From IMG/VR virus record IMGVR_UViG_640753024_000007, positions 1 through 29,932 of that record: DNA of 29,932 bases. One strand, given 5' to 3'. Positions 1,422-29,371 of this stretch are shown piece by piece; position 1 is the first letter of the stretch, and every line of letters begins with the position of its first letter. The notes under the pieces are model-generated. The model had not been told where the DNA came from. It did no database searches and saw only the letters and a program-made list of their open reading frames with translations. Both the position numbers and the translations under genes were made by a program. The stretch comes from a virus. Taxonomy: Duplodnaviria > Heunggongvirae > Uroviricota > Caudoviricetes.

Positions 1422-3893
1422 TTAAAAATCAGCCTGACTCGGGATCAGTTTTTGCCAGATAACTGAAACGTATTTTGCCTGGTAACGGGCGTCATCAAGT
1501 GCATTATGGCGCTCACCTTCGAATGGAATAGCCGTTCTGGCATCGAAGTCTATGGCTTTCCCCAGCTCAACGATTGTGCGTACATCGCGATCGTTGTAGT
1601 AACGCCACGGGCAGGGGATCCCCTGCCGTTCGTATGAACGGCGCAAAATCGTGTTGTCGAAGTTGGCTCCATTTCCCCAGACCTGAACAAAAAATTCACC
1701 GGAGTTTTCGTCGATAAATTCCCGCAATTGTAACAGTGCATCATCTAACGGGATTTCATCGGTCATAATGGCAGATTGCGCTTCGCGTGATTGCTTAAGC
1801 CACCATTTAATGGTGTCCCGATCAATGACTCCGCCAGCAGTTTCCAGATCGATAGTCTTACTAAATTCCGGTCCCATATCTCCGGTTTGCGGATCGAAAA
1901 ATATTGCACCTATTGAGATGATCGGGGCATCAGGATTTTTTCCCATGGTTTCAAGGTCTATCATTAGATGGTCACACGTCCTGCTGGTGGATGTGATTAC
2001 GTGATGACCGTTCACCTTAATTGAGTGATCTGCCGTCTCGCCAGTTTCATTATCGCTATCGTGATGCTGATTGCCGCCAGTGTTCTCCTTGTGTGGATGT
2101 TCAGCGCCTTCCATTTCCTCCGGATCATCTTCCTGAACTTCAACCTGATACTCTTCATCGAATGTTTCCTGGTATGTTGCGTCGCCCATCACCGCGCCAC
2201 AATCAGGGCAATTGCCGCCGCCGGTCTGACCGCAGGCGGTGCAGACTTTTTCCACTTCCTGTTGCGCCACTGGTTCAGGCTGTTTCGTTTCTGGCTCGTT
2301 TTGTAACGCATTTGGGCTGTTTTGTTCCGCTTTTTGGTAGTTCCGTTCCGATTCATGCTGGTTCTGGTTTACAGAATCGCGGGTCTGGATCCCCTTAACC
2401 CATTTCGGATCATTCGGGTCGCTAATCCCTGCAACAAATTCTCCGCGAGAGGCAGCAAGCAACTTATCGGCGTCAGGCTGGCTGATATTGGCTGCCTGCA
2501 TAATTTTGTTTACTTCGTCAGCGGTAACTTTTACCGGCCCTGGTTGTGCGGTCGTGTCAGATGCACCAGTATTTTGTTGTGAACCTGAGTATGTACCGTT
2601 TTTGTGGGCGAAATATTCTTCTTTCGTGATTTCAGTAGCCCCGGCAGCCAGTGCCTTATCCAGACCAGAAAGTTTGTTTGCGCGACCGTATTTTTCGCCA
2701 TCCTTGTCGGTGAAGAGGAAGTAGAACGGCCCCTCACGCTCTACAGATGGTTCGACTTCCACTTTGCATTCGGTTTTTTCGTTGTCCGGAATTGCCGTTT
2801 CCACTGCATCAGTTTCTGGTACTGGCGACGAGAGAGTATCAGTTGCGCTCTGATTTCTTCCTTCATCTTCAAACACGCCCTTTGTAGTCAGGTATTCAGT
2901 AATGTATTTGTTCAGTGCCACAGGGTCTTTGTGAATGTCGATCGGACGTTCACGGACAAGGCCAAAAATAGTCTGGCGGTCGTAGCGAAGGGCATCAGGC
3001 TGTTTGCGCATTGATGCCGAGATACGCTTCCAGTCTTCGCGGTCGTTGTCGATAACTTCATTTTTTGCCCAGCGATGGATGCTGCCGTCAATGTTTCCGG
3101 CATCCACATCACCAGGCCAGAGAGCGTAGGCCAGTTCGTCATCCAGTGTTTTCCATGTCTGCTTGTATTCGCGATGAATGGCAGCAATGACCAGGCTGAT
3201 TTTTCCTGTTGAATTTTCAGTGTGCTGTTGATTGACTCTGGCGCGGGCGAGATCAACAACAGACGTGTATTTTCCGGTTTCCTTGCGTTCACCTTCGCGA
3301 CGTTTTTTCCAGATGCGCATCTCTGCCTGAATTTCGGGCCATTTGGCACCAGGCTTACATTTATGCTTAACCCACCCGATGGCATGCAGCTTAAGCTCCG
3401 GATACATGGCGTTAACATCTGGCATTTTCATCAACGCTTCAACGATATGTCCGTCGAATGTTGCCATGTCTTCCTGCAACAATTCCTGTGCGCTAATAAC
3501 CATATCAACGGTGATGTTTTCACATGTGTCGAACTTAACCATGACAGCGTTCTGTACTTCAGGGGCCAGCTTGTCAAAAGTGACGTTCATCGGATCGGCT
3601 TCAGTCTCAACCGGGACAAAGGAAGCAGACTCCTCATCCCAGCGGTTTTCCTGCATATATTCAGCATCCCAGGAATCGAGGGCAGGGCGGGGTATACCGG
3701 GTTTATCCTCGCAGACAAGAAATTTATAAGCGCAGTCCTGAGCAGCCGGATAATGTTCCAGGAATTGCCAGTGAAATTTTGCGCGGGCGCGACGTTCATC
3801 ACCGGCTTCAATGGCAGTGGCTACAGCGACGGCACCTTCTTCCTTTATTGCCTGTTCGTCCGGAATGGCGGCGCAAATAAAGACTTTACTCAT
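1422..3893 (-). CDS. Large prophage exonuclease with C-terminal DnaQ-like DEDDh 3'-5' exonuclease domain (family often annotated exodeoxyribonuclease VIII)
   Basis: 823-aa ORF; C-terminal motifs IDLETMG, WGNGANFD and HNALDDARY match DEDDh Exo I/II/III; internal CxxC-x-CxxC zinc ribbon (CTACGQTGGGNCPDCG) and an acidic low-complexity linker. Confidence 0.8.
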   Translation of the reverse strand: MSKVFICAAIPDEQAIKEEGAVAVATAIEAGDERRARAKFHWQFLEHYPAAQDCAYKFLVCEDKPGIPRPALDSWDAEYMQENRWDEESASFVPVETEADPMNVTFDKLAPEVQNAVMVKFDTCENITVDMVISAQELLQEDMATFDGHIVEALMKMPDVNAMYPELKLHAIGWVKHKCKPGAKWPEIQAEMRIWKKRREGERKETGKYTSVVDLARARVNQQHTENSTGKISLVIAAIHREYKQTWKTLDDELAYALWPGDVDAGNIDGSIHRWAKNEVIDNDREDWKRISASMRKQPDALRYDRQTIFGLVRERPIDIHKDPVALNKYITEYLTTKGVFEDEGRNQSATDTLSSPVPETDAVETAIPDNEKTECKVEVEPSVEREGPFYFLFTDKDGEKYGRANKLSGLDKALAAGATEITKEEYFAHKNGTYSGSQQNTGASDTTAQPGPVKVTADEVNKIMQAANISQPDADKLLAASRGEFVAGISDPNDPKWVKGIQTRDSVNQNQHESERNYQKAEQNSPNALQNEPETKQPEPVAQQEVEKVCTACGQTGGGNCPDCGAVMGDATYQETFDEEYQVEVQEDDPEEMEGAEHPHKENTGGNQHHDSDNETGETADHSIKVNGHHVITSTSRTCDHLMIDLETMGKNPDAPIISIGAIFFDPQTGDMGPEFSKTIDLETAGGVIDRDTIKWWLKQSREAQSAIMTDEIPLDDALLQLREFIDENSGEFFVQVWGNGANFDNTILRRSYERQGIPCPWRYYNDRDVRTIVELGKAIDFDARTAIPFEGERHNALDDARYQAKYVSVIWQKLIPSQADF

Positions 3894-3972
3894 TTTGTTT
3901 TACCTCATTACAGATTTAAGGGTGAACAAATCCCTGCCATTGCTGGCATATAAAAATGAAACTGGATATTAA

Positions 3973-4176
3973 TTACGGCGCTGTTTTTAATCCTGCCGGG
4001 ATTTCGTTATTGTCCATGTGAATAACTTTATCGACCGGATAACAGTTGCCGGGAATTTTCTGTTCCGCTGCGGCAGCCATGCATTCTTTCATTGAGTTGT
4101 ACATGCCGGTGATTGCATCAAGCGACTCACCAGTATTGAGATGTACAGTCAGAATGAGTACGAATAATGTGTTCAT
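3973..4176 (-). CDS. Small hypothetical protein with N-terminal hydrophobic (signal-like) segment
   Basis: GGAGA Shine-Dalgarno 6 nt before the ATG at 4176; ATGA overlap with the stop of the upstream DicB-like gene; hydrophobic N-terminus LFVLILTVHL. Confidence 0.5.
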   Translation of the reverse strand: MNTLFVLILTVHLNTGESLDAITGMYNSMKECMAAAAEQKIPGNCYPVDKVIHMDNNEIPAGLKTAP

Positions 4177-4371: not shown

Positions 4372-4929
4372 TCAACAATGAATTTTTAGCAATTGCTCCA
4401 CAGTCATATTTTTAATTGCGCTCCGGTTTACAAGAGTCCATCCTTGTTTCTCCAGATAAAAGCGGAAAGTATCCAGAGTACAGACGAGAGCGCCGTCAGG
4501 AACGGTTTCGGTGAATTTGATATTGCCGCGTTCGTCGAAGTGAACAACGAGAGTGCGACCATCACCAGGAATTATTTTGTCTGTGGTAGTGGTATTAAGC
4601 TGGTACAACTCTGCCTCCATGCGATCGAATTCAGCGATGTAGGCTTCCTTGAAAGCTGCGGCTTTTTTGCCCGTGAAGCCCATCACCAGGAAAACGAAGC
4701 CGTTTTTGGTGATTTGGTACATAGGGAGTTTGCGCCCGGTTGAGTCGGTGTATTCGCTCACCTTAAAATTAAGGGCAGTGAATTCAGGGGAGCAATCCAG
4801 TAATTTTATTTTTTGAATAACATTGTCGTGGCGTTTGCCAAAGAACTCGGCGATCGCAACAGACGTAGTGACAGCGCGACCATTTTCGATGGTTACGTCA
4901 GGTTGAGAAAGGGTAGGGATAGTAGCCAT
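4372..4929 (-). CDS. Rha-family phage regulatory protein (antirepressor-like)
   Basis: N-terminal signature GRAVTTSVAIAEFFGKRHDNVIQKIK typical of Rha; start chosen at the internal ATG (4929) with a GAGG RBS because the in-frame upstream extension to 5226 contains a terminator hairpin and conserved non-coding-looking elements. Confidence 0.75.
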   Translation of the reverse strand: MATIPTLSQPDVTIENGRAVTTSVAIAEFFGKRHDNVIQKIKLLDCSPEFTALNFKVSEYTDSTGRKLPMYQITKNGFVFLVMGFTGKKAAAFKEAYIAEFDRMEAELYQLNTTTTDKIIPGDGRTLVVHFDERGNIKFTETVPDGALVCTLDTFRFYLEKQGWTLVNRSAIKNMTVEQLLKIHC

Positions 4930-5070
4930 GATAGCAGCCTCGTTAGTGAATTTGATTAACTCACCACCAAGGTTTTCCACGACCATAAGGGTGGTGAGAC
5001 GTACAGGGGTGGAAATACCGGTCACTAACGAACCCGGCCAGCCTTGCGGCTGCCCTGCACGTCCCACCAT

Positions 5071-5098
5071 AATCTGAATGTGGCTGTGCATTACGCAT
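5071..5098 (-). terminator. Putative intrinsic terminator in the leader upstream of rha
   Basis: On the minus strand: ACCGC-gctcag-GCGGT followed by TTTTTTT. Confidence 0.45.
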
Positions 5099-5446
5099 AA
5101 AAAAACCGCCTGAGCGCGGTTATGCGCGTTAGTGAACATCGGGTTTCCACGCCCGGCACCCGTTTTATGAGGTGCAGGTGCACTATAATTCCACCCGTTC
5201 TGGTTTTCAATAGCTACATTCAACATTTTCTCTACCTTTCATCACCTAAGTGAACTTTGTGATGCGGTGCCTGGTGCCTCCAGGTGACGTTAACCAGTTA
5301 ACAATTAACGCCGGATGATTCACCCATAACACTTGTGTTTTTAACTGTTCTGCGTGCGCTGAGCCGCATTCACCGCATCACGAAATTCACTTTTTACTTC
5401 ATAGACCGTGATATGATTTAGCTTTCCACAGTAAAAAGGAGTGTTT

Positions 5447-11625: not shown

Positions 11626-12554
11626 ATAATCACCCCTTTGTTTCCGCTATGCAGTTCTAACAATATATCATTAGAAAGGTTTTTTATCGTGTCATGAAGT
11701 GCTGTTAGATCAGGTATGCCTGTTAATGGGTCGATTTTTAAATCATTATCATCTAACTCTGCAGAAATTCCTTTTTTTAGTATAGTCTCATAATTGAAAA
11801 CGACAGTCCGACTGCCGAGTTGTAAGCTTACTTTTATTGCATCACATTTATCTTCAATAATCTCAATGATGTTTCCTATATTCTTGTTTCTTAAATCCCT
11901 GAAACTTCCGAACATGCCATCGTTTGCTTTTATTATTAAGTCTGTCTTGATGTTTGTTTTGTTTTGACCAAAGGAATCAGCAATGTCTTTTGGTGCTTTA
12001 TATCCTTGAGCCTTAATTTGTTTTAATTCGGAATTGAGAATATATTGAGGGATTTTCTTATGATGTAATGGATTGATTCTTGCTTCGAGTTGAAATTTGT
12101 TTTTTAGATATTCAGTGATAGAATCAGAAAGGACACCTCGGGCAGAAATATTATCGCAAGAGTGGAATGCAATAATTCCTTCTTCAAGGGCGTCTGGTAG
12201 GTATATTAAAATATAACGTTCTTTGAGTGTTACATCATAAGCAGTTGTCCTGTAGTGGATTTTTTTGAGTTTTACATCTTTTATTTCACTGCTTTCTCCA
12301 TATTTCCCAACTTTTATATAACCATATATAATTTTCTTTGAGTTATCAAAGTGAAGTTTAGCGTGTTGTTCCAGAGATATTTTAGTTTTGGATACGCCAA
12401 ACTCGATGGGGGTGTTTTTATATAGAGTAAAATAATCAACAAAAAGTTCATATGCCGTTTTTTTATTACTTAAACCCAATTCATTAAGTTTTTTGCTGGC
12501 TCGACTGCCTTTATGGGTCAATACGCGGAATGAATAGAAATTAACGCTGTGCAT
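11622..12554 (-). CDS. 310-aa soluble protein of unknown function, candidate sensor/partner of the membrane protein
   Basis: AAAGGA RBS; Lys/Ile/Asn-rich, AT-rich composition unlike the flanking prophage genes. Confidence 0.65.
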   Translation of the reverse strand: MHSVNFYSFRVLTHKGSRASKKLNELGLSNKKTAYELFVDYFTLYKNTPIEFGVSKTKISLEQHAKLHFDNSKKIIYGYIKVGKYGESSEIKDVKLKKIHYRTTAYDVTLKERYILIYLPDALEEGIIAFHSCDNISARGVLSDSITEYLKNKFQLEARINPLHHKKIPQYILNSELKQIKAQGYKAPKDIADSFGQNKTNIKTDLIIKANDGMFGSFRDLRNKNIGNIIEIIEDKCDAIKVSLQLGSRTVVFNYETILKKGISAELDDNDLKIDPLTGIPDLTALHDTIKNLSNDILLELHSGNKGVII

Positions 12555-12980
12555 GAAAAGTCCTTTTGAACATATAGGAATATACTAGAACATAAATAGA
12601 TGCAATGCATAAAGGAAAAGCTACCGCAGGGCGCACTCACCCACCGATAGCTCTTAACTGCTTGTTTGTAAAAGATAATACATAAATTTGGGTCTGTGTA
12701 AAGAGGTAAGCATCGTCAGGGCAAGGGAGATGTGTTAGGCAATATTGGTAAAATTTACGTTGAGGATAAAAACGGTTTGCGGGAAAAGGAGAGTTAAGTA
12801 GAATTGCTGCGGGTGCTTGAGGCTATCTGTCTCAGGCATGAACACCAAAAGGCAGATAGAGAAAAGCCCCAGTTAACATTACGCGTCCTGCAAGACGCTT
12901 AACATTAATCTGAGGCCCAATCTATGTCTCACAAATGTAGGTTAGCCTCTTACGTGCCGAAAGGCAAGGAGAAGCAGGCT

Positions 12981-13136
12981 ATGAAGCAGCAAAAGGCGAT
13001 GTTAATCGCCCTGATCGTCATCTGTTTAACCGTCATAGTGACGGCACTGGTAACGAGGAAAGACCTCTGCGAGGTACGAATCCGAACCGGCCAGACGGAG
13101 GTCGCTGTCTTCGCAGCTTACGAACCTGAGGAGTAA
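12981..13136 (+). CDS. hokD: Hok/Gef-family type I toxin
   Basis: MKQQKAMLIALIVICLTVIVTALVTRKDLCEVRIRTGQTEVAVFAAYEPEE matches the Hok family and the HokD/RelF sequence as I recall it; AGGAGA RBS; an in-frame upstream extension from 12924 occupies the mok position. Confidence 0.85.
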   Translation: MKQQKAMLIALIVICLTVIVTALVTRKDLCEVRIRTGQTEVAVFAAYEPEE

Positions 13137-15012: not shown

Positions 15013-15372
15013 ATGCGTATAGAGTTTGTTTTGCCTTACCCGCCGACGGTGAACACCTACTGGCGTCGTCGTGGCAGCACATATTTTGTTTCAAAAGCCG
15101 GTGAGCGTTATCGCCGTGATGTGGCGCTAATTGTTCGCCAGCAGCGACTGAAATTAAACCTGTCCGGAAGGCTGGCGATAAAGATTATTGCAGAGCCGCC
15201 GGATAAGCGCCGTCGTGACTTGGACAATATTCTGAAAGCACCACTGGATGCACTGACACATGCGGGGTTGCTTATCGACGACGAGCAGTTTGATGAAATC
15301 AATATTGTGCGCGGACTGCCTGTTCCTGGTGGTCGGTTGGGGATAAAAATCACAGAGCTGGAGTGCGCATGA
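15013..15372 (+). CDS. rusA: Holliday junction resolvase RusA
   Basis: 119 aa; the motif DKRRRDLDNILKAPLDALTHAGLLIDD matches the RusA catalytic region. Confidence 0.9.
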   Translation: MRIEFVLPYPPTVNTYWRRRGSTYFVSKAGERYRRDVALIVRQQRLKLNLSGRLAIKIIAEPPDKRRRDLDNILKAPLDALTHAGLLIDDEQFDEINIVRGLPVPGGRLGIKITELECA

Positions 15373-16058
15373 ATAACCAGTATTTACAGTTTGTTCGTGA
15401 GCAGCTCATTATCGCCACCGCTGATTTGAGTGGGGCAACAAAAGGTCAGCTTGAAGCCTGGCAAGAGAATGCCATGTTCGATACAGGGCGTTACAGGCGT
15501 AAAAAAATCCGGTACCGCGATGAAGTGACTGGAAAAATGATAACGCGGGATAATCCACCAATCCCGGGAAAGCAATCGCTGGCGAAAGGTTCATCAATTG
15601 CCCTGGTCAGTCCGGTTGAGTTTTCGACATCATCATGGCGACGCGCCGTTCTGTCTCTTGAAGAGCATCAGAAGGCGTGGGTGCTGTGGGTATACAGTGA
15701 AAATCCGAGTTGGGATTATCAGGTGGTCATTGCGAAATGGGCGTGGGATAAGTTTCAGGTGCATTTTGGCACCAGAAAAATTACAGGGAAAACGCTTGAG
15801 CGTCTGAAGAAATTAATCTGGCTGGCGGCGCAGGATGTCAGGGGGAGGATTACTGGGCGTGACGTCTACCAGCGACAGGAACTTGCCAGACTGTGTGGAG
15901 TTAAGCCTGACAACTGGAGCCATAATTATGCGAACTACTGGCGTGAGATGTGCGACATTTTTAAGAAACTCGATACAGAATCCTTGATTTGCACCGTGAA
16001 AATGAGATCGCAACAAAAAGCGACCTTTTCACGACGAGATATTGCAAAAGTCAATTAA
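15369..16058 (+). CDS. Late-gene antiterminator, Q-like
   Basis: ATGA overlap with rusA; position immediately before a terminator and the late region; 229 aa. Confidence 0.65.
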   Translation: MNNQYLQFVREQLIIATADLSGATKGQLEAWQENAMFDTGRYRRKKIRYRDEVTGKMITRDNPPIPGKQSLAKGSSIALVSPVEFSTSSWRRAVLSLEEHQKAWVLWVYSENPSWDYQVVIAKWAWDKFQVHFGTRKITGKTLERLKKLIWLAAQDVRGRITGRDVYQRQELARLCGVKPDNWSHNYANYWREMCDIFKKLDTESLICTVKMRSQQKATFSRRDIAKVN

Positions 16059-16105
16059 ATCGCATACATTTTATGTAAATGTGATATTTTGCCGTATAGT
16101 GTGTA

Positions 16106-16130
16106 AACCCGCTTAAATGCGGGTTTTTTG
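16106..16130 (+). terminator. Intrinsic terminator downstream of Q
   Basis: CCCGC-ttaaat-GCGGG followed by TTTTTT. Confidence 0.7.
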
Positions 16131-16202
16131 CTTAACTCTGTGGACCTTTTTATCTGTAGTTGTAAGATATGGATATTCTTACAATTTAGGTCGGTGAGCT
16201 TA

Positions 16203-16967
16203 ATGGAAGAACAGCACGGTAATTACTTTATAAAACGAATTCAGTTGATTGGAAGAGGTGCATTTGGCTTTGTTGAACACGTTAAGGTTTACAACCTCAA
16301 CAAGGGTGAATGTGGGGATTATGCTAGAAAGGTTTTAGCCCCCGAAAAACCAGAGCTTTTGGCGCAAATAGAGCAGTTTAGAAGGCGTTTTAAAAGGGAG
16401 GTCGTGTATCAATCACATTGCGTACATAGCAATATTGTTCCTATTTATTTGTGCGATTTGTTTGCCGAGAATCCATGGTTCATTATGGATAAAGCAGAAT
16501 GTGATCTTGAGCACGAAATAACGAACAACCTTCTTACAACAGATCAAAAAATTTCAATAGTGAAAATGGTATTAGATGGTGTAGCTCACATCCATGCGAA
16601 AGGCTATTTACACAGAGATATAAAACCATTTAATGTCTTGCGATTTAGCGACGGAACATACAAGGTGTCTGATTTTGGTCTGGTAAAAGATACAAATCCC
16701 GAAGGGGATACCACTAAATTGACCGAGATCGGTACCCGTATGGGAAGTACAAGATATATGGCTCCCGAGATTTTATATAATGCCGAGTATTCAGTTAAGA
16801 CTGATGTTTATGCGGTGGGGCGGTTAATTGAGGACTTAAATTTAGATGATAAAAAAATAAAGCCTATCATAGCGAAGTGTACCAGGATGGATAAAGATGA
16901 TAGATATCAGACAATAGATGATGTGGCGTTTGATTTTGTGCATTCTTTTTTAAGGAGTGAGTCATGA
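16203..16967 (+). CDS. Hanks-type Ser/Thr protein kinase (kinase domain only)
   Basis: Gly-loop GRGAFGFV, beta3 Lys in YARKVL, catalytic loop HRDIKPFN, DFG, APE; AT-rich. Confidence 0.85.
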   Translation: MEEQHGNYFIKRIQLIGRGAFGFVEHVKVYNLNKGECGDYARKVLAPEKPELLAQIEQFRRRFKREVVYQSHCVHSNIVPIYLCDLFAENPWFIMDKAECDLEHEITNNLLTTDQKISIVKMVLDGVAHIHAKGYLHRDIKPFNVLRFSDGTYKVSDFGLVKDTNPEGDTTKLTEIGTRMGSTRYMAPEILYNAEYSVKTDVYAVGRLIEDLNLDDKKIKPIIAKCTRMDKDDRYQTIDDVAFDFVHSFLRSES

Positions 16968-17707
16968 TTCAGCTGATAGCGACTTCATCATTCTCGTATC
17001 CAAAAGAACCAGGTAGGGTCAACGAAGATTCATTGCTTCCTCCCAAAATTGTAGGGGATGGCATCTTATTTGCCGTAGCTGATGGTGTAGGTTCATACAC
17101 TGGTGCCAGTCAGGCTTCATCAATGGCAATTGCTGAGCTTTCAGCATTGACAAGCTTATCTTTTGACACAGTTCCGGATGTATTTGATGAAGTTAAGCGA
17201 AAGGTTATGTCGTTAGCTGATGTTAATGATGAGTTCGATAAAGCTGCTACTACACTTACGTTTTGTTATGTTTGTGATAGCGGAATTATTATTGGTCATA
17301 TTGGTGATTGTCGTTTGTATTGCATTGGAGAGAAGAAAGCATACCAATTGACGAAGGACGATACCAGGCATCAGATGCTAATTGATCAGAATATTTTTAA
17401 ACCCAGAGATTTGAAGGATAAACCGGGCAAAAATATCTTAACGACGGCTATAGCCTCAAATGTTGATATGGAATACGACTGTGATTTTATCACATGGAAA
17501 GATTTACCTAGTATTAACGGGGTATATCATCTGTGTATCATGTCTGATGGGGTTCATAACGTTTGGGAAAAACGCCCCAGATTTACATCAAATACGATGA
17601 GTAATAGTCAGAAGTTTTCTAATGGCATTTTGCGTCGTATAGAGAGAGCCGGACCTGATGATGACTTTTCTTTAGTAAGTATAATGGTGCGTGTGACGTC
17701 AGATTAG
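16964..17707 (+). CDS. PP2C-family (PPM) Ser/Thr phosphatase
   Basis: ATGA overlap with the kinase stop; metal-binding motifs NEDS, AVADGVGS, GDCR and SDGV. Confidence 0.8.
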   Translation: MIQLIATSSFSYPKEPGRVNEDSLLPPKIVGDGILFAVADGVGSYTGASQASSMAIAELSALTSLSFDTVPDVFDEVKRKVMSLADVNDEFDKAATTLTFCYVCDSGIIIGHIGDCRLYCIGEKKAYQLTKDDTRHQMLIDQNIFKPRDLKDKPGKNILTTAIASNVDMEYDCDFITWKDLPSINGVYHLCIMSDGVHNVWEKRPRFTSNTMSNSQKFSNGILRRIERAGPDDDFSLVSIMVRVTSD

Positions 17708-18274: not shown

Positions 18275-19321
18275 ATGGTTAATACTGTAAAAATATCCAG
18301 TTGTGAGTTAATCAACGCTGATTGCCTGGAATTTATCCAGACCTTACCGGAAAACTCTGTCGACCTGATAGTCACAGACCCGCCATACTTTAAAGTGAAG
18401 CCCGAGGGTTGGGATAACCAGTGGAAGGGCGACGATGATTACCTGAAATGGCTGGATCAGTGTCTGGCGCAATTCTGGCGGGTACTGAAACCTGCCGGAA
18501 GTCTCTACCTGTTCTGTGGTCATCGCCTGGCATCTGATATCGAAATCATGATGCGTCAGCGCTTTAATGTGCTGAACCACATTATCTGGGCGAAGCCGTC
18601 CGGACGCTGGAACGGATGCAACAAGGAAAGCCTGCGGGCGTATTTCCCGGCAACAGAACGCATTCTGTTTGCAGAACATTATCAGGGGCCATACCAGCCC
18701 AAAAATGACGGCTATGCGGCAAAGGGGCGCGAGCTAAAACAGCACGTCATGGCCCCGCTGATTTCTTACTTTCGTGATGCGCGTGAATCACTGGGAATAA
18801 CGTCAAAACAGATAGCGGAAGCCACCGGAAAGAAAAACATGGCTTCGCACTGGTTTGGTACCAGTCAGTGGCAGTTACCGAACGAGGGTGATTACAACAA
18901 ATTGCAGGAGTTGTTTGCGCGTGTTGCGGCAGAAAAACATCAGCGCGGGGAACTGGAAAAGCCACACCACCAGCTGGTCAGCACATACAGTGAACTGAAC
19001 CGGCAATATGCCAGCCTGCTGGCAGAGTACAAATCTTTACGGCGTTATTTTTCCGTATCGGCTGCTGTTCCTTATACGGATGTCTGGACGTACAAGCCAG
19101 TGCAGTATTATCCGGGCAAACATCCCTGTGAAAAACCAGCGGATATGTTACGTCAGATAATTACCGCCAGCAGTCGTCCGGGAGACTTGGTTGTCGACTT
19201 TTTTATGGGGTCAGGCTCCACAATTAAAGCCGCAATGACGCTGGGGCGTCGGGCAATTGGTGTGGAACTGGAAAAAGAGAGATTTAATCAAACTGTAACT
19301 GTAATAGAAAATAATCTTTAA
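18275..19321 (+). CDS. DNA methyltransferase (beta-class amino-MTase, DPPY motif; N6-adenine or N4-cytosine)
   Basis: Motif IV LIVTDPPYF lies N-terminal to motif I DFFMGSGST (beta-class order); no adjacent restriction endonuclease. Confidence 0.85.
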   Translation: MVNTVKISSCELINADCLEFIQTLPENSVDLIVTDPPYFKVKPEGWDNQWKGDDDYLKWLDQCLAQFWRVLKPAGSLYLFCGHRLASDIEIMMRQRFNVLNHIIWAKPSGRWNGCNKESLRAYFPATERILFAEHYQGPYQPKNDGYAAKGRELKQHVMAPLISYFRDARESLGITSKQIAEATGKKNMASHWFGTSQWQLPNEGDYNKLQELFARVAAEKHQRGELEKPHHQLVSTYSELNRQYASLLAEYKSLRRYFSVSAAVPYTDVWTYKPVQYYPGKHPCEKPADMLRQIITASSRPGDLVVDFFMGSGSTIKAAMTLGRRAIGVELEKERFNQTVTVIENNL

Positions 19322-19385: not shown

Positions 19386-19416
19386 TTGACATTGATTTTT
19401 ATTGAAAAAATATCTT
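19386..19416 (+). promoter_or_regulatory. Candidate sigma70 promoter for the tRNA pair
   Basis: TTGACA at 19386-19391 with TATCTT/AATATC candidates 17-19 bp downstream, about 70 nt before the first tRNA. Confidence 0.35.
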
Positions 19417-19487
19417 ATCTCGTTAATATTCTCACCCGGTTCCGAGGGGGTATTGCTGGGGCATTTTATTTTTCTTGAGGAACCATT

Positions 19488-19563
<76 letters not shown>

Positions 19564-19566
19564 TAT

Positions 19567-19641
<75 letters not shown>

Positions 19642-19996
19642 TCATTATTCTGGCAACACGAATTATACAGCACTGGCGTGTTTTTTTACGTGGGGGCAGG
19701 TTGTTTTAAGACATCTTTGGTCCTCAGGCTATGGTTTAAGGTCGGTTATAGCCTCAGTGCTGATTTTTTACACCAATGGAATGGTGCATTATCGGTGGAG
19801 ATTTAGTATTTCCTGGCAGGGCTGATGATGCACTATCCCGGTGTTGTAAAAACACTACAGAGGTGTTCCTCAGTGCGAGGGTGGTTTAAAGAGTCGGTTT
19901 AGCGGGAAACCACAGTATCCTTGTGGGGCTGGATGCTTCGGGAGGCACCCGACACTTCTGAATACAATTAAATCATGCGTTTTTATATGCCATTAA

Positions 19997-20021
19997 CCGC
20001 CGCTCCAGGCGGTTTTTTTTT
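19997..20021 (+). terminator. Intrinsic terminator
   Basis: CCGCC-gctcca-GGCGG followed by T9. Confidence 0.7.
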
Positions 20022-20641
20022 ATTCAAAGTTCGGGGTTACAAGTGCTCGCTTCCACTACTTTGGTTTTTACAATTATAGTTTTTGGGAGAATCTTCATGG
20101 GGCGTGCTTCATCCTTTGCAATTCGCTGATCCTGGTGTATGAGACAATGAAGTCCATGCGGTAACGAAGGTCGGATATCTGCTCGGTTTTATTCTGGTAA
20201 TTTGGGGCCTTCGCTTTTTACGGATGCGGGCAGCACAAGGTTATTGGGGCGACGGCCATCATTGTTGCATTTGCAGGAGTTATTCTGAGTCCGACAAGAA
20301 TGTGCTGTTGAGTGCACGGTTGGCTGAAAGAAACTGCCACCTGAAGAATGGTGAACTTATTTAGTAGGGGATCCTGGATGAAATTGAACGGGATGATAAC
20401 TCCGAAATTAGTCCACTGAGGAATGCCTTATACAAGAGATCATGGATAACCCTCGGGCATTTACAGGAAGCAAACGCTACTTACTTCACTACCCCGGAGA
20501 AGTGGGGACTGTCAATATGACAGATAACAAAATCTGAAAATGAGTCTCTCCAGTTGAGAAATATACGATGAAGGAGCATTCTGTTCAGCGCAAAGTAATC
20601 CGTTTTGTGATGAATAATCTCGAGAGTCATTTTTCATTCCT

Positions 20642-20670
20642 GCCAGCCTCCCCAGAGCTGGCTTTTTTTT
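20642..20670 (+). terminator. Intrinsic terminator
   Basis: GCCAGC-ctccccaga-GCTGGC followed by T8. Confidence 0.7.
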
Positions 20671-20733
20671 GAGGCCTGTTCTGACGGGCTTTTTTGTATT
20701 CGCTCCACGTCCCATACATATCAAATCTGAATA

Positions 20734-20781
20734 ACACCACACAAAGGCATCTGCGGATGTCTTTGGTGTGGTGTTTTTTTT
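20734..20781 (+). terminator. Strong intrinsic terminator (long hairpin) followed by a second small GGCC hairpin with its own T-run
   Basis: ACACCACACAAAG...CTTTGGTGTGGTGT stem of about 13 bp followed by T8; then GGCC-gctggt-GGCC followed by T6. Confidence 0.7.
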
Positions 20782-20821
20782 GGGCCGCTGGTGGCCTTTT
20801 TTAATTTACAGGAGAAAAAGT

Positions 20822-21172
20822 ATGTCTGAACCCTTATCCGGTTCCGGCACAGCTGCTGCGCTCGGTGGGGCGACTGTTTTCGGGCTGTTTACCGGAACGG
20901 ATTTCGGGATTGTGTTTGGCGCATTTGCGGGGGCGTTGTTTGTTGCAACGATACCGCAGGCGCTTTCAGCATGGCGGGTGAAGGGGCTGCTGCATCACGG
21001 TCTGAAACTGAACCGTCTGGCTGAACGGGCGGCGCAGGATCTGTCATTCATGGAGCCGCCTCCCGCGCAGCCGGAAGAAAAAATCAGTTTAAGTATGCCG
21101 GGCGCAAAAGCACCGGAGACACCCCGTAAGAAAATACCGCTGCATATGAGGCTTGCAGGAGTGAGACGATGA
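20822..21172 (+). CDS. Hypothetical protein (117 aa) with N-terminal glycine-zipper hydrophobic segment; translationally coupled to gpW
   Basis: AGGAGA RBS; ATGA overlap with the W-like gene; occupies the position where lambda terminase large subunit would end. Confidence 0.5.
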   Translation: MSEPLSGSGTAAALGGATVFGLFTGTDFGIVFGAFAGALFVATIPQALSAWRVKGLLHHGLKLNRLAERAAQDLSFMEPPPAQPEEKISLSMPGAKAPETPRKKIPLHMRLAGVRR

Positions 21173-21428: not shown

Positions 21429-22511
21429 ATGATAGTCGATAAAAATGGCAGACCTTTTCCGCAACAGACGGAAAAAAAACGCGCACTGAATGACAGCGGG
21501 CGGATCCCCTACGACTCTGCCGGTTTCTCGCACGGTTCGGTGGTGGGCTGGAACCCGGTACTGTGGTCACCGGACAATGAAGTGAATATCTGGCGTAACC
21601 GTATGGTTGCCAGAATGCGCGACCTTGTCCGCAATGACGGCTGGGCGAATGGCAGTATCACCCGTCTGCTGGACAATGCCATGGGGGTGGTTTTTCGCCC
21701 GAGGATGAAGCCTGACTACCGGATGCTGGCAGAGATGACCGGCAACCGGGCATTTGATGCAGACTGGGCGGATGAGTACGGGCGCTGTGTGGAGGCACAC
21801 TGGCGCAACTGGGCCAGTGATGCCGGGTGTTACTGCGACCTTGAACGCAGACAGACCCTGCCGCAGCTTTTCCGGCTGGCATTCCGCCACAAGATGATCG
21901 ACGGCGATGCGCTGGCGGTCATCCACTGGCGACCGGACAGAATAGCCCCTGGTCGCGGGCGTTACGGTACGGTGGTACAGGTGATTGACCCCGACCGGCT
22001 GAGTAACCCGAACGATGCGTTTGACATGCCGCATATTCGTGGCGGTGTGGAAATTGACGCGGACGGGGTGCCGGTAGCCTATCACATCCGGTCCGCACAC
22101 ATGGGGGACTGGTGGAGCGGCAGTGACACGATGCACTGGGAACGCGTGCCGCGTGAAACGTCGTGGGGAAGGCCGGTGGTGGTGCATGACTTTGATCATG
22201 ACCGTGCGGGCCAGCATCGTGGTGTCGGTATTCTCAATCCCGTGGTTCAGCGTCTGAAAATGCTTATCAAGTACGACCAGGTGGAGCTGGAAGCCGCCAT
22301 CATCAATGCCATGTTCGGTTTTTTCATCACGTCGCCCTATGACCCGAAACTGACAGAAGATCTGATGAGTGACGCGGAGGTGATTAATGGCTACCAGGAT
22401 GCGCGCATGAAGTATCACGATACTAACCGGATTTCGATGTCGGGCGTGCGTATTCCCATCACGTTCCCCGGCGAAGAGCCAAAAGCCGTGAGCGCCGCCC
22501 GACCGAGGTGA
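21429..22511 (+). pseudogene. Portal protein (lambda gpB-like), 3'-truncated by deletion
   Basis: 360 aa versus about 530 for lambda B; recalled B motifs conserved (VRNDGWANG, CYCDLERRQT, DRLSNPN); ORF terminates where capsid-E homology begins in another frame. Confidence 0.75.
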
Positions 22512-29188: not shown

Positions 29189-29371
29189 TGACGTCCTCTA
29201 GTGGTTTCTAAACTTAAACTATCACCACCGTCAGGTTCCAATCATCGGGTGGTGAGACGCACAGGGTTGGAACTACCGGGAAACCGACCGACGAGCTTTT
29301 CAGCTCCCCCATGCGCCCCACAATAATTCATATGTGCGCGTGCATACGAGAAAAAACACTTGTTATATCTG

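Follow-up and report, generated by a model that had tools for sequence, protein, structure and literature searches.

The pre-holin spacer of a defective lambdoid prophage: a putative tRNA operon trailer with an STnc100-like RNA, followed by a conserved terminator stack

The stretch of DNA analysed here, called the window below, comprises the 29,932 nucleotides (nt) of the IMG/VR record IMGVR_UViG_640753024_000007 and is a lambdoid prophage of the Escherichia coli type. The analysis was centred on an 1180-nt spacer (positions 19642-20821) that lies between two phage tRNA genes and the start of a holin gene, and on the putative small RNA (sRNA) and the transcription terminators contained in it. 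On the plus strand the features are arranged in the order DUF968, RusA, Q, Ser/Thr kinase, PP2C phosphatase, a small open reading frame (ORF), methyltransferase, tRNA-Thr, tRNA-Gly and the spacer, and their coordinates are compiled in Table 1.

The spacer holds just two ORFs of at least 60 amino acids, neither of them credible, and its ORFs and stop-to-stop stretches had no match in Pfam or PHROGs, which bears out the lack of a credible ORF noted in the first-pass annotation of the window. The three terminators listed there, and the small hairpin behind the last of them, were found again with correct coordinates, and one further site raised the total to five (T1 to T5). All strong terminator sites of the spacer are on the plus strand. 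A terminator pattern scan of the 1180 nt returned 5 matches against 0.8 ± 0.9 in dinucleotide shuffles, to which T2 and T4 have to be added because they go beyond the loop and bulge limits of the scan; a home-made terminator finder was too permissive (67 plus-strand matches in the window) and was not used for enrichment. The promoter scan returned no plus-strand promoter-like site in the spacer. Parts of the spacer were present in 557 of 5426 complete E. coli genomes searched with blastn, and the only recurring parts were those from about 19670 to 20025 and from about 20690 to 20821. The spacer is tripartite, with block A and block B as the recurring parts and an insert between them. The fold z-scores against shuffled sequences were -4.25 for block A, -4.7 for block B and -0.05, i.e. 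no better than shuffles, for the insert.

Table 1. Coordinates of features in and around the spacer (positions in the window; dG, predicted folding free energy; z, z-score against shuffled sequences; RBS, ribosome-binding site).
Feature	Position	Strand	Details
Q antiterminator gene	15363-16058	+	PF06323, 282 bits
Candidate late promoter pR'	16043-16071	+	TTGCAA-17-TACATT, spotted by eye, 8/12 matches
Terminator tR'	16105-16126	+	terminator scan; dG -13.5, z -4.3
N6/N4 DNA methyltransferase gene	18275-19321	+	
Predicted sigma-70-type promoter of the tRNA operon	19402-19429	+	TTGAAA-16-TAATAT, promoter scan match
tRNA-Thr(UGU)	19488-19563	+	ARAGORN; Rfam tRNA 73.8 bits
tRNA-Gly(UCC)	19567-19641	+	ARAGORN; Rfam tRNA 65.6 bits
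ORF, not credible	19609-19806		start inside tRNA-Gly
Block A	19642-20025	+	
Block A, 5' domain	19669-19846	+	long-range helix 19669-19675 with 19755-19761, then U-run; long hairpin D2 at about 19771-19846
Block A, 3' core	19838-19963	+	STnc100-like multi-branch fold
A/U-rich linker	19964-19994	+	between 3' core and T1
T1	19995-20021	+	stem 19995-20014, then U9; dG -12.4 kcal/mol, z -4.2
Orphan insert	20026-20670	+	645 nt, lineage-specific, ends in T2
ORF, not credible	20512-20742	-	antisense across T2-T4
T2	20642-20670	+	stem 20642-20662, then U8; dG -11.6 kcal/mol
Block B	20671-20821	+	T3, T4, T5, then RBS AGGAG 20811-20815, holin ATG 20822
T3	20671-20698	+	stem 20671-20692, then U6; dG -11.0 kcal/mol
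T4	20734-20781	+	stem 20734-20775, then U8; dG -29.0 kcal/mol
T5	20782-20803	+	stem 20782-20797, then U6; dG -8.2 kcal/mol
Chimeric ORF	20822-21172	+	holin residues 1-53 in frame with TerL residues 596-659 (last 64)
Deletion 1, junction	20979-20980		5.4 kb lost
Portal N-terminal fragment	21429-22511		PF05136
Deletion 2, junction	22498-22505		about 3.06 kb lost, from portal 3' end to capsid 5' end

The whole spacer was found at 99.8% identity in E. coli DS26-1 (NZ_CP035879), in a matching region of 99.8-99.9% identity, and there it is followed on its 3' side by intact genes for a holin, a second holin, an M15 endolysin, a small-terminase-like protein, TerL, gpW, portal, protease, decoration and capsid proteins. 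Alignment of the window to this locus revealed two deletions, both outside the spacer and downstream of it, which together removed about 8.5 kb of late genes: the rest of the holin gene, the endolysin gene, TerS and most of TerL were lost in one of them, and the sequence from the 3' end of the portal gene through the 5' end of the capsid gene in the other. At the second junction, where the N-terminal part of the portal is joined to the 3' part of the capsid gene, the two alignments overlap by 8 nt (microhomology). The ATG at 20822, taken in the first-pass annotation for the beginning of the first head gene, is the start of a holin (PF16931) fused to the end of TerL; this chimeric ORF matched Phage_holin_8 (PF16931) over residues 1-43 only, and in a BLASTP comparison with the DS26-1 proteins it was identical to the holin at 53 of 53 and to TerL at 63 of 64 residues. 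The absence of lysis and terminase genes stated in that annotation holds for the genes lost at about 20980 and about 22500, downstream of the spacer, and not for the holin, which is truncated rather than absent; corrected ORF calling, from which intact lysis genes might have emerged, restored a holin start, but that of a truncated gene. Nor is the spacer the place where lysis and terminase genes are to be expected, as the same 1180 bp lie directly upstream of the intact holin, endolysin and terminase genes in DS26-1. The prophage is defective, and the spacer itself is complete and native. Since it is complete and native, it is not, as a whole, a gene relic.

Block A (approximately 385 nt) directly follows the 3' end of tRNA-Gly and is closed by T1. 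It was found in 426 of the 5426 E. coli genomes (about 8%), in 229 of them at a coverage of at least 80%; almost all matches fall under no annotated feature, and 39 places are on plasmids. Relatives in IMG/VR were collected with the exact 17-nt core motif TTCGGGAGGCACCCGAC, which occurred in 103 stretches, and one locus (L049), a GC-rich and unrelated false positive of the motif, was removed. In 75 of the 93 IMG/VR loci with enough upstream sequence, the core motif is preceded at 283-312 nt by the 3' end of a tRNA on the same strand; this tRNA is tRNA-Gly in 71 and tRNA-Arg in 4 of these and usually the last member of an array of 2-4 tRNAs. T1 is retained in nearly all relatives of block A, among which no ORF conserved in strand, frame or position was detected. 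The layout in the window is of the trailer type, i.e. block A lies on the same strand right after the last tRNA without an intervening promoter or terminator, and T1 is the first terminator. The promoter position of the tRNA array is kept in divergent relatives with unalignable flanks (TTGAAA or TTGCGA, 16-17 nt, TAtTAT or TATCAT). The order methylase, tRNAs, block A, holin is also present in the SerU-LTIIb prophage (KU052038). A holin-anchored scan of genome contigs yielded 6 loci, too few for statistics, among which the Enterobacter locus L009 was useful.

Several further observations concern the relatives of block A and the tRNA leader. SerU-LTIIb contains the module of tRNA pair, block A, terminators and holin twice in tandem (1122-2424 and 3028-4127 of the locus); the holin at the end of the first copy is truncated ('holin1a'), and the LT-IIb toxin genes are located after the endolysin gene and not in the pre-holin slot. 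A literature search found no published description of the tRNA-holin region of LT-II prophages. The large E. coli plasmids pPE041_2 and XJ34 unnamed2 carry pieces of block A (56-63% identity) that retain the core motif and lie amid insertion sequence (IS) elements, with neither tRNA nor holin nearby. The ends of the leader between the tRNA promoter and tRNA-Thr (19439-19483, plus strand) are able to pair (GGTTCCGAGGGGG ... CTTGAGGAACC), and such leader ends (GGTTCTGAGGGG ... CCCCTGAAGAACC) are shared by most relatives and hint at a stem that serves the processing of the tRNA precursor.

Block A is structured in both of its domains. The consensus of its 5' domain, which matches no Rfam family, comprises 28 base pairs in an alignment of 30 relatives (A3), 6 of them with compensatory changes, for example an exchange of AU for GC at one pair in 11 sequences. 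The 3' core consists of the closing helix GAGGUG/CACUUC, the hairpins CCUC-AGUGC-GAGG and GGUGGUUU...AAACCAC, a variable hairpin and the hairpin CGGG-AGGCA-CCCG. Covariation of the core was evaluated in 31 non-redundant sequences with RNAalifold and pair counts: 96.6% of the cells were paired and 11 pairs had changed on both sides, as compared with 1-3 in slid controls, and none of 500 shuffles matched this. Helix P0 (19842-19856) is weaker than the others (85.8% paired) and competes with the base of hairpin D2. The GGUGU segment is used both by the D2 base (19771-19775 with 19842-19846) and by P0 (19842-19846 with 19852-19856), and a mutually exclusive conformational alternative between the two is possible. 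The A/U-rich linker that follows the core is a possible seed or Hfq-binding region.

The full-length Rfam model of STnc100 (RF02076, model positions 1-206) matched 19836-20025 with all helices covered, at 23.7 bits (E 0.002-0.013) and thus far under the Rfam gathering score of 47, so that a plain Rfam scan of the spacer has a match to offer and no family call. Conversely, R1, a covariance model built from the relatives of block A, recovered two Rfam-confirmed STnc100 copies, with 33 bits (E 1e-5) in L009 and 26 bits (E 5e-4) in L015, which RF02076 itself scored at 84.6 and 93.7 bits, respectively. In L009 a tRNA and the start of the bona fide STnc100 are 10 nt apart, and a holin of the same family follows that start at a distance of about 315 nt. 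Two sRNAs of the enteropathogenic E. coli (EPEC) strain E2348/69, PasD1 and PasD2, have been described as structurally related to STnc100; their RF02076 scores (37.7 and 41.4 bits) are sub-threshold as well. STnc100, PasD, PasA and PasC have been placed between Q and the holin-lysozyme operon, and STnc100, PasD and PasA are expressed in lysogens. Eleven STnc100 copies are transcribed in strain EDL933, one of them confirmed by Northern blot, and one STnc100 copy sits 75 nt after stx2B. PasD is Hfq-dependent, with Northern data and with targets from RNA interaction by ligation and sequencing (RIL-seq). The location of block A is the same, in the lambdoid late region on the strand of the late genes and between Q and the holin start, and this context of an STnc100-type RNA is common to DS26-1, L009, L015 and E2348/69. 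The fold shared by the core of block A and STnc100/PasD includes the closing helix, internal hairpins, the GGGAGGCACCC hairpin, the A/U linker and the terminator. Because of the full-length though sub-threshold Rfam match, the recovery of genuine STnc100 by R1 and the published placement between Q and holin, the 3' half of block A is read from its sequence as most likely a divergent STnc100-type sRNA, and block A as a whole as most likely the trailer of a phage tRNA operon closed by T1. The idea of the first-pass annotation that the terminators mark the ends of prophage sRNAs fits T1, which closes a covarying, STnc100/PasD-like RNA, and is less likely for T3-T5, which are better read as terminators preceding the holin and closing the cargo slot.

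A second STnc100-type core was detected on the minus strand at 5256-5396; it has no terminator and matched RF02076 at model positions 30-154 only (33.8 bits, E 3e-5) and R1 at 18.4 bits. It includes a closing helix GAUGCGGUG/CACCGCAUC and an CCUGGAGGCACCAGG hairpin and is located just upstream, on the same strand, of a promoter-like site (TTGAAA-17-TATAGT) and of isrK (5099-5175) and C4 (4987-5074), two RNAs of the immunity/antirepressor region.

The unit of T4, T5, AGGAG and ATG in block B precedes the holin in 43 of 45 distinct relatives irrespective of the content upstream, and both hairpins were predicted in almost all of them. The inner stem of T4 covaries (GGCAUC/GGUGCC, GGUAUC/GGUACC, GGCGUC/GGCGCC). 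Block B, alone or together with block A, also occurs in phage records, among them the Stx2e phage phiP27 and the LT-IIb prophage SerU. The stacking of terminators before this holin is a conserved trait of the phage group and no peculiarity of the window, as minimal relatives keep T1, a T3-like hairpin, T4 and T5 all within about 240 nt. Classes of relatives show no conservation of sequence upstream of T4, and the spacer has no promoter-like site, so T4 and T5 are better explained as terminators of a cargo slot than as parts of an sRNA body. As far as we found, the conserved terminator triplet on the holin RBS has not been described.

The content of the slot between T1 and T3 varies among the relatives, in which it is empty, about 190 nt long, or occupied by extra tRNAs (Val, Tyr) or by the genes TerB or DUF3927. 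Minimal forms have about 242-254 nt between the core motif and the holin ATG, and in further classes this interval is about 440, 860-930, 1010-1140, 1310-1450 and 1790-1950 nt. The insert that fills the slot in the window is restricted to DS26-1, 4 further complete E. coli genomes (5 of 5426 in all) and two IMG/VR contigs. No relative of it was found among the fetched loci by blastn or tblastx (118 related loci for tblastx), and there was no match for its six stop-to-stop translations in Pfam and PHROGs, for tblastn against phages and blastn against plasmids, or for the 123-amino-acid composite of frame +1 in a set of 5.8 billion proteins. An origin as a decayed copy of the tRNA/block A unit, hinted at by short repeats (D3, D4, D6), was ruled out because the nhmmer profile of the unit gave no match.

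Candidates for the late promoter pR' and the terminator tR' lie directly 3' of the Q gene (16043-16126), and E2348/69 has the same layout after Q, with TTGCAA-17-TATACT followed by a terminator. Directly 3' of Q and its terminator, and within the late transcript, the window carries a gene pair for a eukaryote-type Ser/Thr kinase (PF00069) and a PP2C phosphatase (PF13672) (16128-17707, plus strand), probably a moron or exclusion module, in place of which DS26-1 has other genes.

Q antiterminators of lambdoid phages modify the polymerase so that it passes terminators. On balance, and with a fair share of doubt left, we favour the following reading: the spacer is native, a constitutive tRNA and sRNA operon is ended by T1, and T3-T5 stand before the lysis genes and are read through only by Q-modified polymerase. 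The predicted sigma-70 promoter would drive tRNA-Thr, tRNA-Gly and the trailer of about 385 nt in what is presumably a single transcript stopping at T1, and judging from its conservation and the expression of related sRNAs it would be active in the lysogen. Processing of the tRNA 3' end may free the 3' 190 nt of block A from the tRNA precursor, and by family resemblance the freed RNA may be a stable, trans-acting and probably Hfq-associated sRNA of the lysogen. The interval from T1 to T3 would serve as the cargo slot, here taken by the 645-nt orphan segment with T2 as its own terminator. T3-T5, and in the window also T2, would keep transcription from the tRNA/sRNA promoter and from the cargo from reaching the lethal lysis genes. 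Upon induction, as established Q biology suggests, Q-modified polymerase starting at pR' (about 16.05 kb) would override all terminators. In the window this system is dead downstream through the two deletions.

Several points weigh against the favoured reading. The promoter, processing, stability and Hfq binding of block A are all inferred, and the model assigns no function to the 190-nt 5' domain or to the orphan insert. T5 by itself is no stabler than shuffles (z -1.2), and the candidate pR' agrees with the consensus at just 8 of 12 positions, which falls under the cut-off of the promoter scan. The relatives were sampled by the exact 17-nt motif, whose hairpin is therefore invariant by construction, and the sampling did not extend to distant relatives. 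Apart from the low STnc100 score, R1 found neither PasD1 nor PasD2 (L003, L004), and blastn of the spacer against the E2348/69 loci showed no similarity to PasA, PasC or PasD (for PasA and PasC the comparison was with L003 and L005, the loci of pasA and pasC, at a word size of 7 and E ≤ 1). As R1 misses PasD and BLAST similarity is lacking, the link to the STnc100/PasD family rests on the fold, one shared hairpin motif and the context.

Among the alternatives, the one deserving most attention, unlikely as it is, takes block A for an element that acts in cis as part of the tRNA transcript or the late mRNA, either as a platform for tRNA processing or stability or as a structured leader, with no sRNA acting in trans. 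The fixed distance to the tRNA in 75 of 93 loci and the 190-nt 5' domain, for which the sRNAs have no counterpart, speak for it, as does the terminator-less core at 5256-5396 (minus strand) upstream of isrK and C4, suggesting that the core is a reusable structural module. However, STnc100/PasD relatives are also found away from tRNAs (after DUF3927 or stx2B) and accumulate as discrete RNAs, targets of the Hfq-dependent PasD have been mapped, and block A retains the layout of linker plus terminator typical of Hfq sRNAs. We consider it rather doubtful that block A is instead a distinct structured RNA class of about 385 nt, kept coupled to phage tRNA genes for a tRNA-tied function, and not a mere STnc100 copy. 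It would then be, for example, a decoy or inhibitor directed against host defences that target tRNAs, or a chaperone or processing platform for the maturation of phage tRNAs, and the STnc100-type core would be a reusable protein-binding module that is also present, terminator-less, beside the isrK/C4 RNAs. About equally doubtful is the view that T4/T5, or T2, are the 3' ends of separate, PasA/PasC-like small RNAs just upstream of the holin. PasA and PasC do adjoin the holin-lysozyme operon directly, the stem of T4 is very stable and unusually conserved in sequence, and block B folds far better than shuffles; yet no promoter-like site is available on the plus strand of the spacer, blastn detected no sequence similarity to PasA or PasC, and the sequence before T4 differs wholly among relatives (T3, the end of the DUF3927 gene or other cargo), which leaves no conserved promoter or RNA body.

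The proposal, also made in the first-pass annotation, that the terminators are relics of deleted genes would imply that lysis, terminase or cargo genes once lay within the spacer and that their decay or deletion left the terminators and the ORF-free DNA behind. The prophage is indeed plainly defective, with about 8.5 kb of late genes gone, and in relatives the slot is occupied by genes (TerB, DUF3927, hypothetical proteins); moreover, the final 12 nt or so before T4 resemble the 3' end of the DUF3927 gene of relatives, and the insert is open in frame +1 over two stretches of about 72 and about 50 codons. This explanation is nevertheless very improbable given the near-identical spacer ahead of the intact late genes of DS26-1, the position of both deletion junctions outside the spacer, the conservation of blocks A and B as non-coding units, and an insert with neither protein nor DNA relative in any of the searches described above (Pfam, PHROGs, phage tblastn, plasmid blastn, tblastx and the 5.8-billion-protein set). 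The HK022 put RNA is composed of two hairpins and roughly 70 nt. It is hardly credible that the STnc100-like core is a cis antiterminator of the put type enabling polymerase to pass the downstream terminators without Q: it has position alone in its favour, being highly structured and upstream of the terminator stack and the late genes, and it bears no likeness to the two-hairpin layout of put and ends in its own conserved strong terminator T1, while the window has a Q gene and, beside it, a terminator, and terminator-resistant transcripts from a constitutive tRNA promoter would express the holin in lysogens.

Compared with known systems, the sRNA read here from block A belongs to, or beside, a known family, and the architecture is that of a known lambdoid late region with morons. 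What is new is a branch overlooked by current annotation, with a conserved structured 5' extension of 190 nt and a near-constant fusion to phage tRNAs. STnc100/PasD RNAs resemble the 3' half of block A in their length of about 190 nt and their place in the lambdoid late region between Q and the holin, and like block A they combine a closing helix around several hairpins, including (C)GGGAGGCACCC(G), with an A/U-rich linker and an intrinsic terminator, occur in many copies per genome and, as in L009, may directly follow a phage tRNA. They differ in that Rfam annotation with the STnc100 model misses block A at its score and threshold, that this model lacks the conserved 5' extension, that block A almost always keeps a fixed distance from tRNA-Gly or tRNA-Arg, and that the linker ('seed') of block A is different from the UGUGAG region of PasD.

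Trailer RNAs of tRNA operons include 3'ETS-leuZ and the RtT RNA of tyrT. Like block A these are positioned between the last tRNA and the terminator of an operon, lack a promoter of their own and are presumably freed by tRNA 3' processing; block A has no sequence or Rfam relationship to them and, in comparison with 3'ETS-leuZ, is much longer, more structured and phage-borne. Copies of RtT have been listed in EDL933. With late control of the lambda type (Q, pR', tR', 6S RNA/StxS) the window shares a Q gene, next to which are a candidate promoter and a terminator, and further intrinsic terminators ahead of the first late (lysis) gene that Q-modified polymerase would be expected to override; in contrast to that system, T1-T5 are separated from Q by 3.9-4.7 kb on its downstream side and by morons (kinase, phosphatase, methyltransferase, tRNAs), and appear to stop an internal constitutive promoter and not pR' itself. 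PasA and PasC, upstream of class II holin genes, are like T4/T5 short terminator-ended elements adjoining the holin-lysozyme operon, but sequence similarity is absent, the holin family is another (PF16931) and no promoter accompanies T4/T5. PhiP27 and SerU have the same holin family and the same block of T4, T5 and RBS as the window, which unlike them has no toxin genes and carries only the 645-nt orphan segment in its slot.

An RNA element carried by approximately 8% of the complete E. coli genomes and by numerous phage contigs of IMG/VR is thus annotated as nothing and scores under the STnc100 threshold of Rfam; its covariation-backed alignment could seed a new Rfam family or broaden RF02076. 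Block A ties phage tRNA genes to prophage sRNAs of the STnc100/PasD group and suggests that such sRNAs can be made as tRNA operon trailers in lysogens. The conserved triple terminator on the holin RBS suggests how constitutive morons are tolerated right upstream of lethal lysis genes. For annotation the lesson is that the missing lysis and terminase genes are due to two mapped deletions and an in-frame holin-terminase fusion, and not to the spacer.

Away from the spacer, a type I toxin-antitoxin locus hok/sok was identified at 12811-12986 (plus strand; sok 120 bits), for which DS26-1 has a hokD annotation, and another C4 antisense RNA close to the end of the window at 29245-29328 (minus strand). 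An IS1 insertion of the DS26-1 prophage (annotated at 4737-5434 of its locus L001; window positions of about 12486-12493 against L001 4721-5490) is absent from the window, and around this site the two prophages are 98-99% identical apart from IS1.

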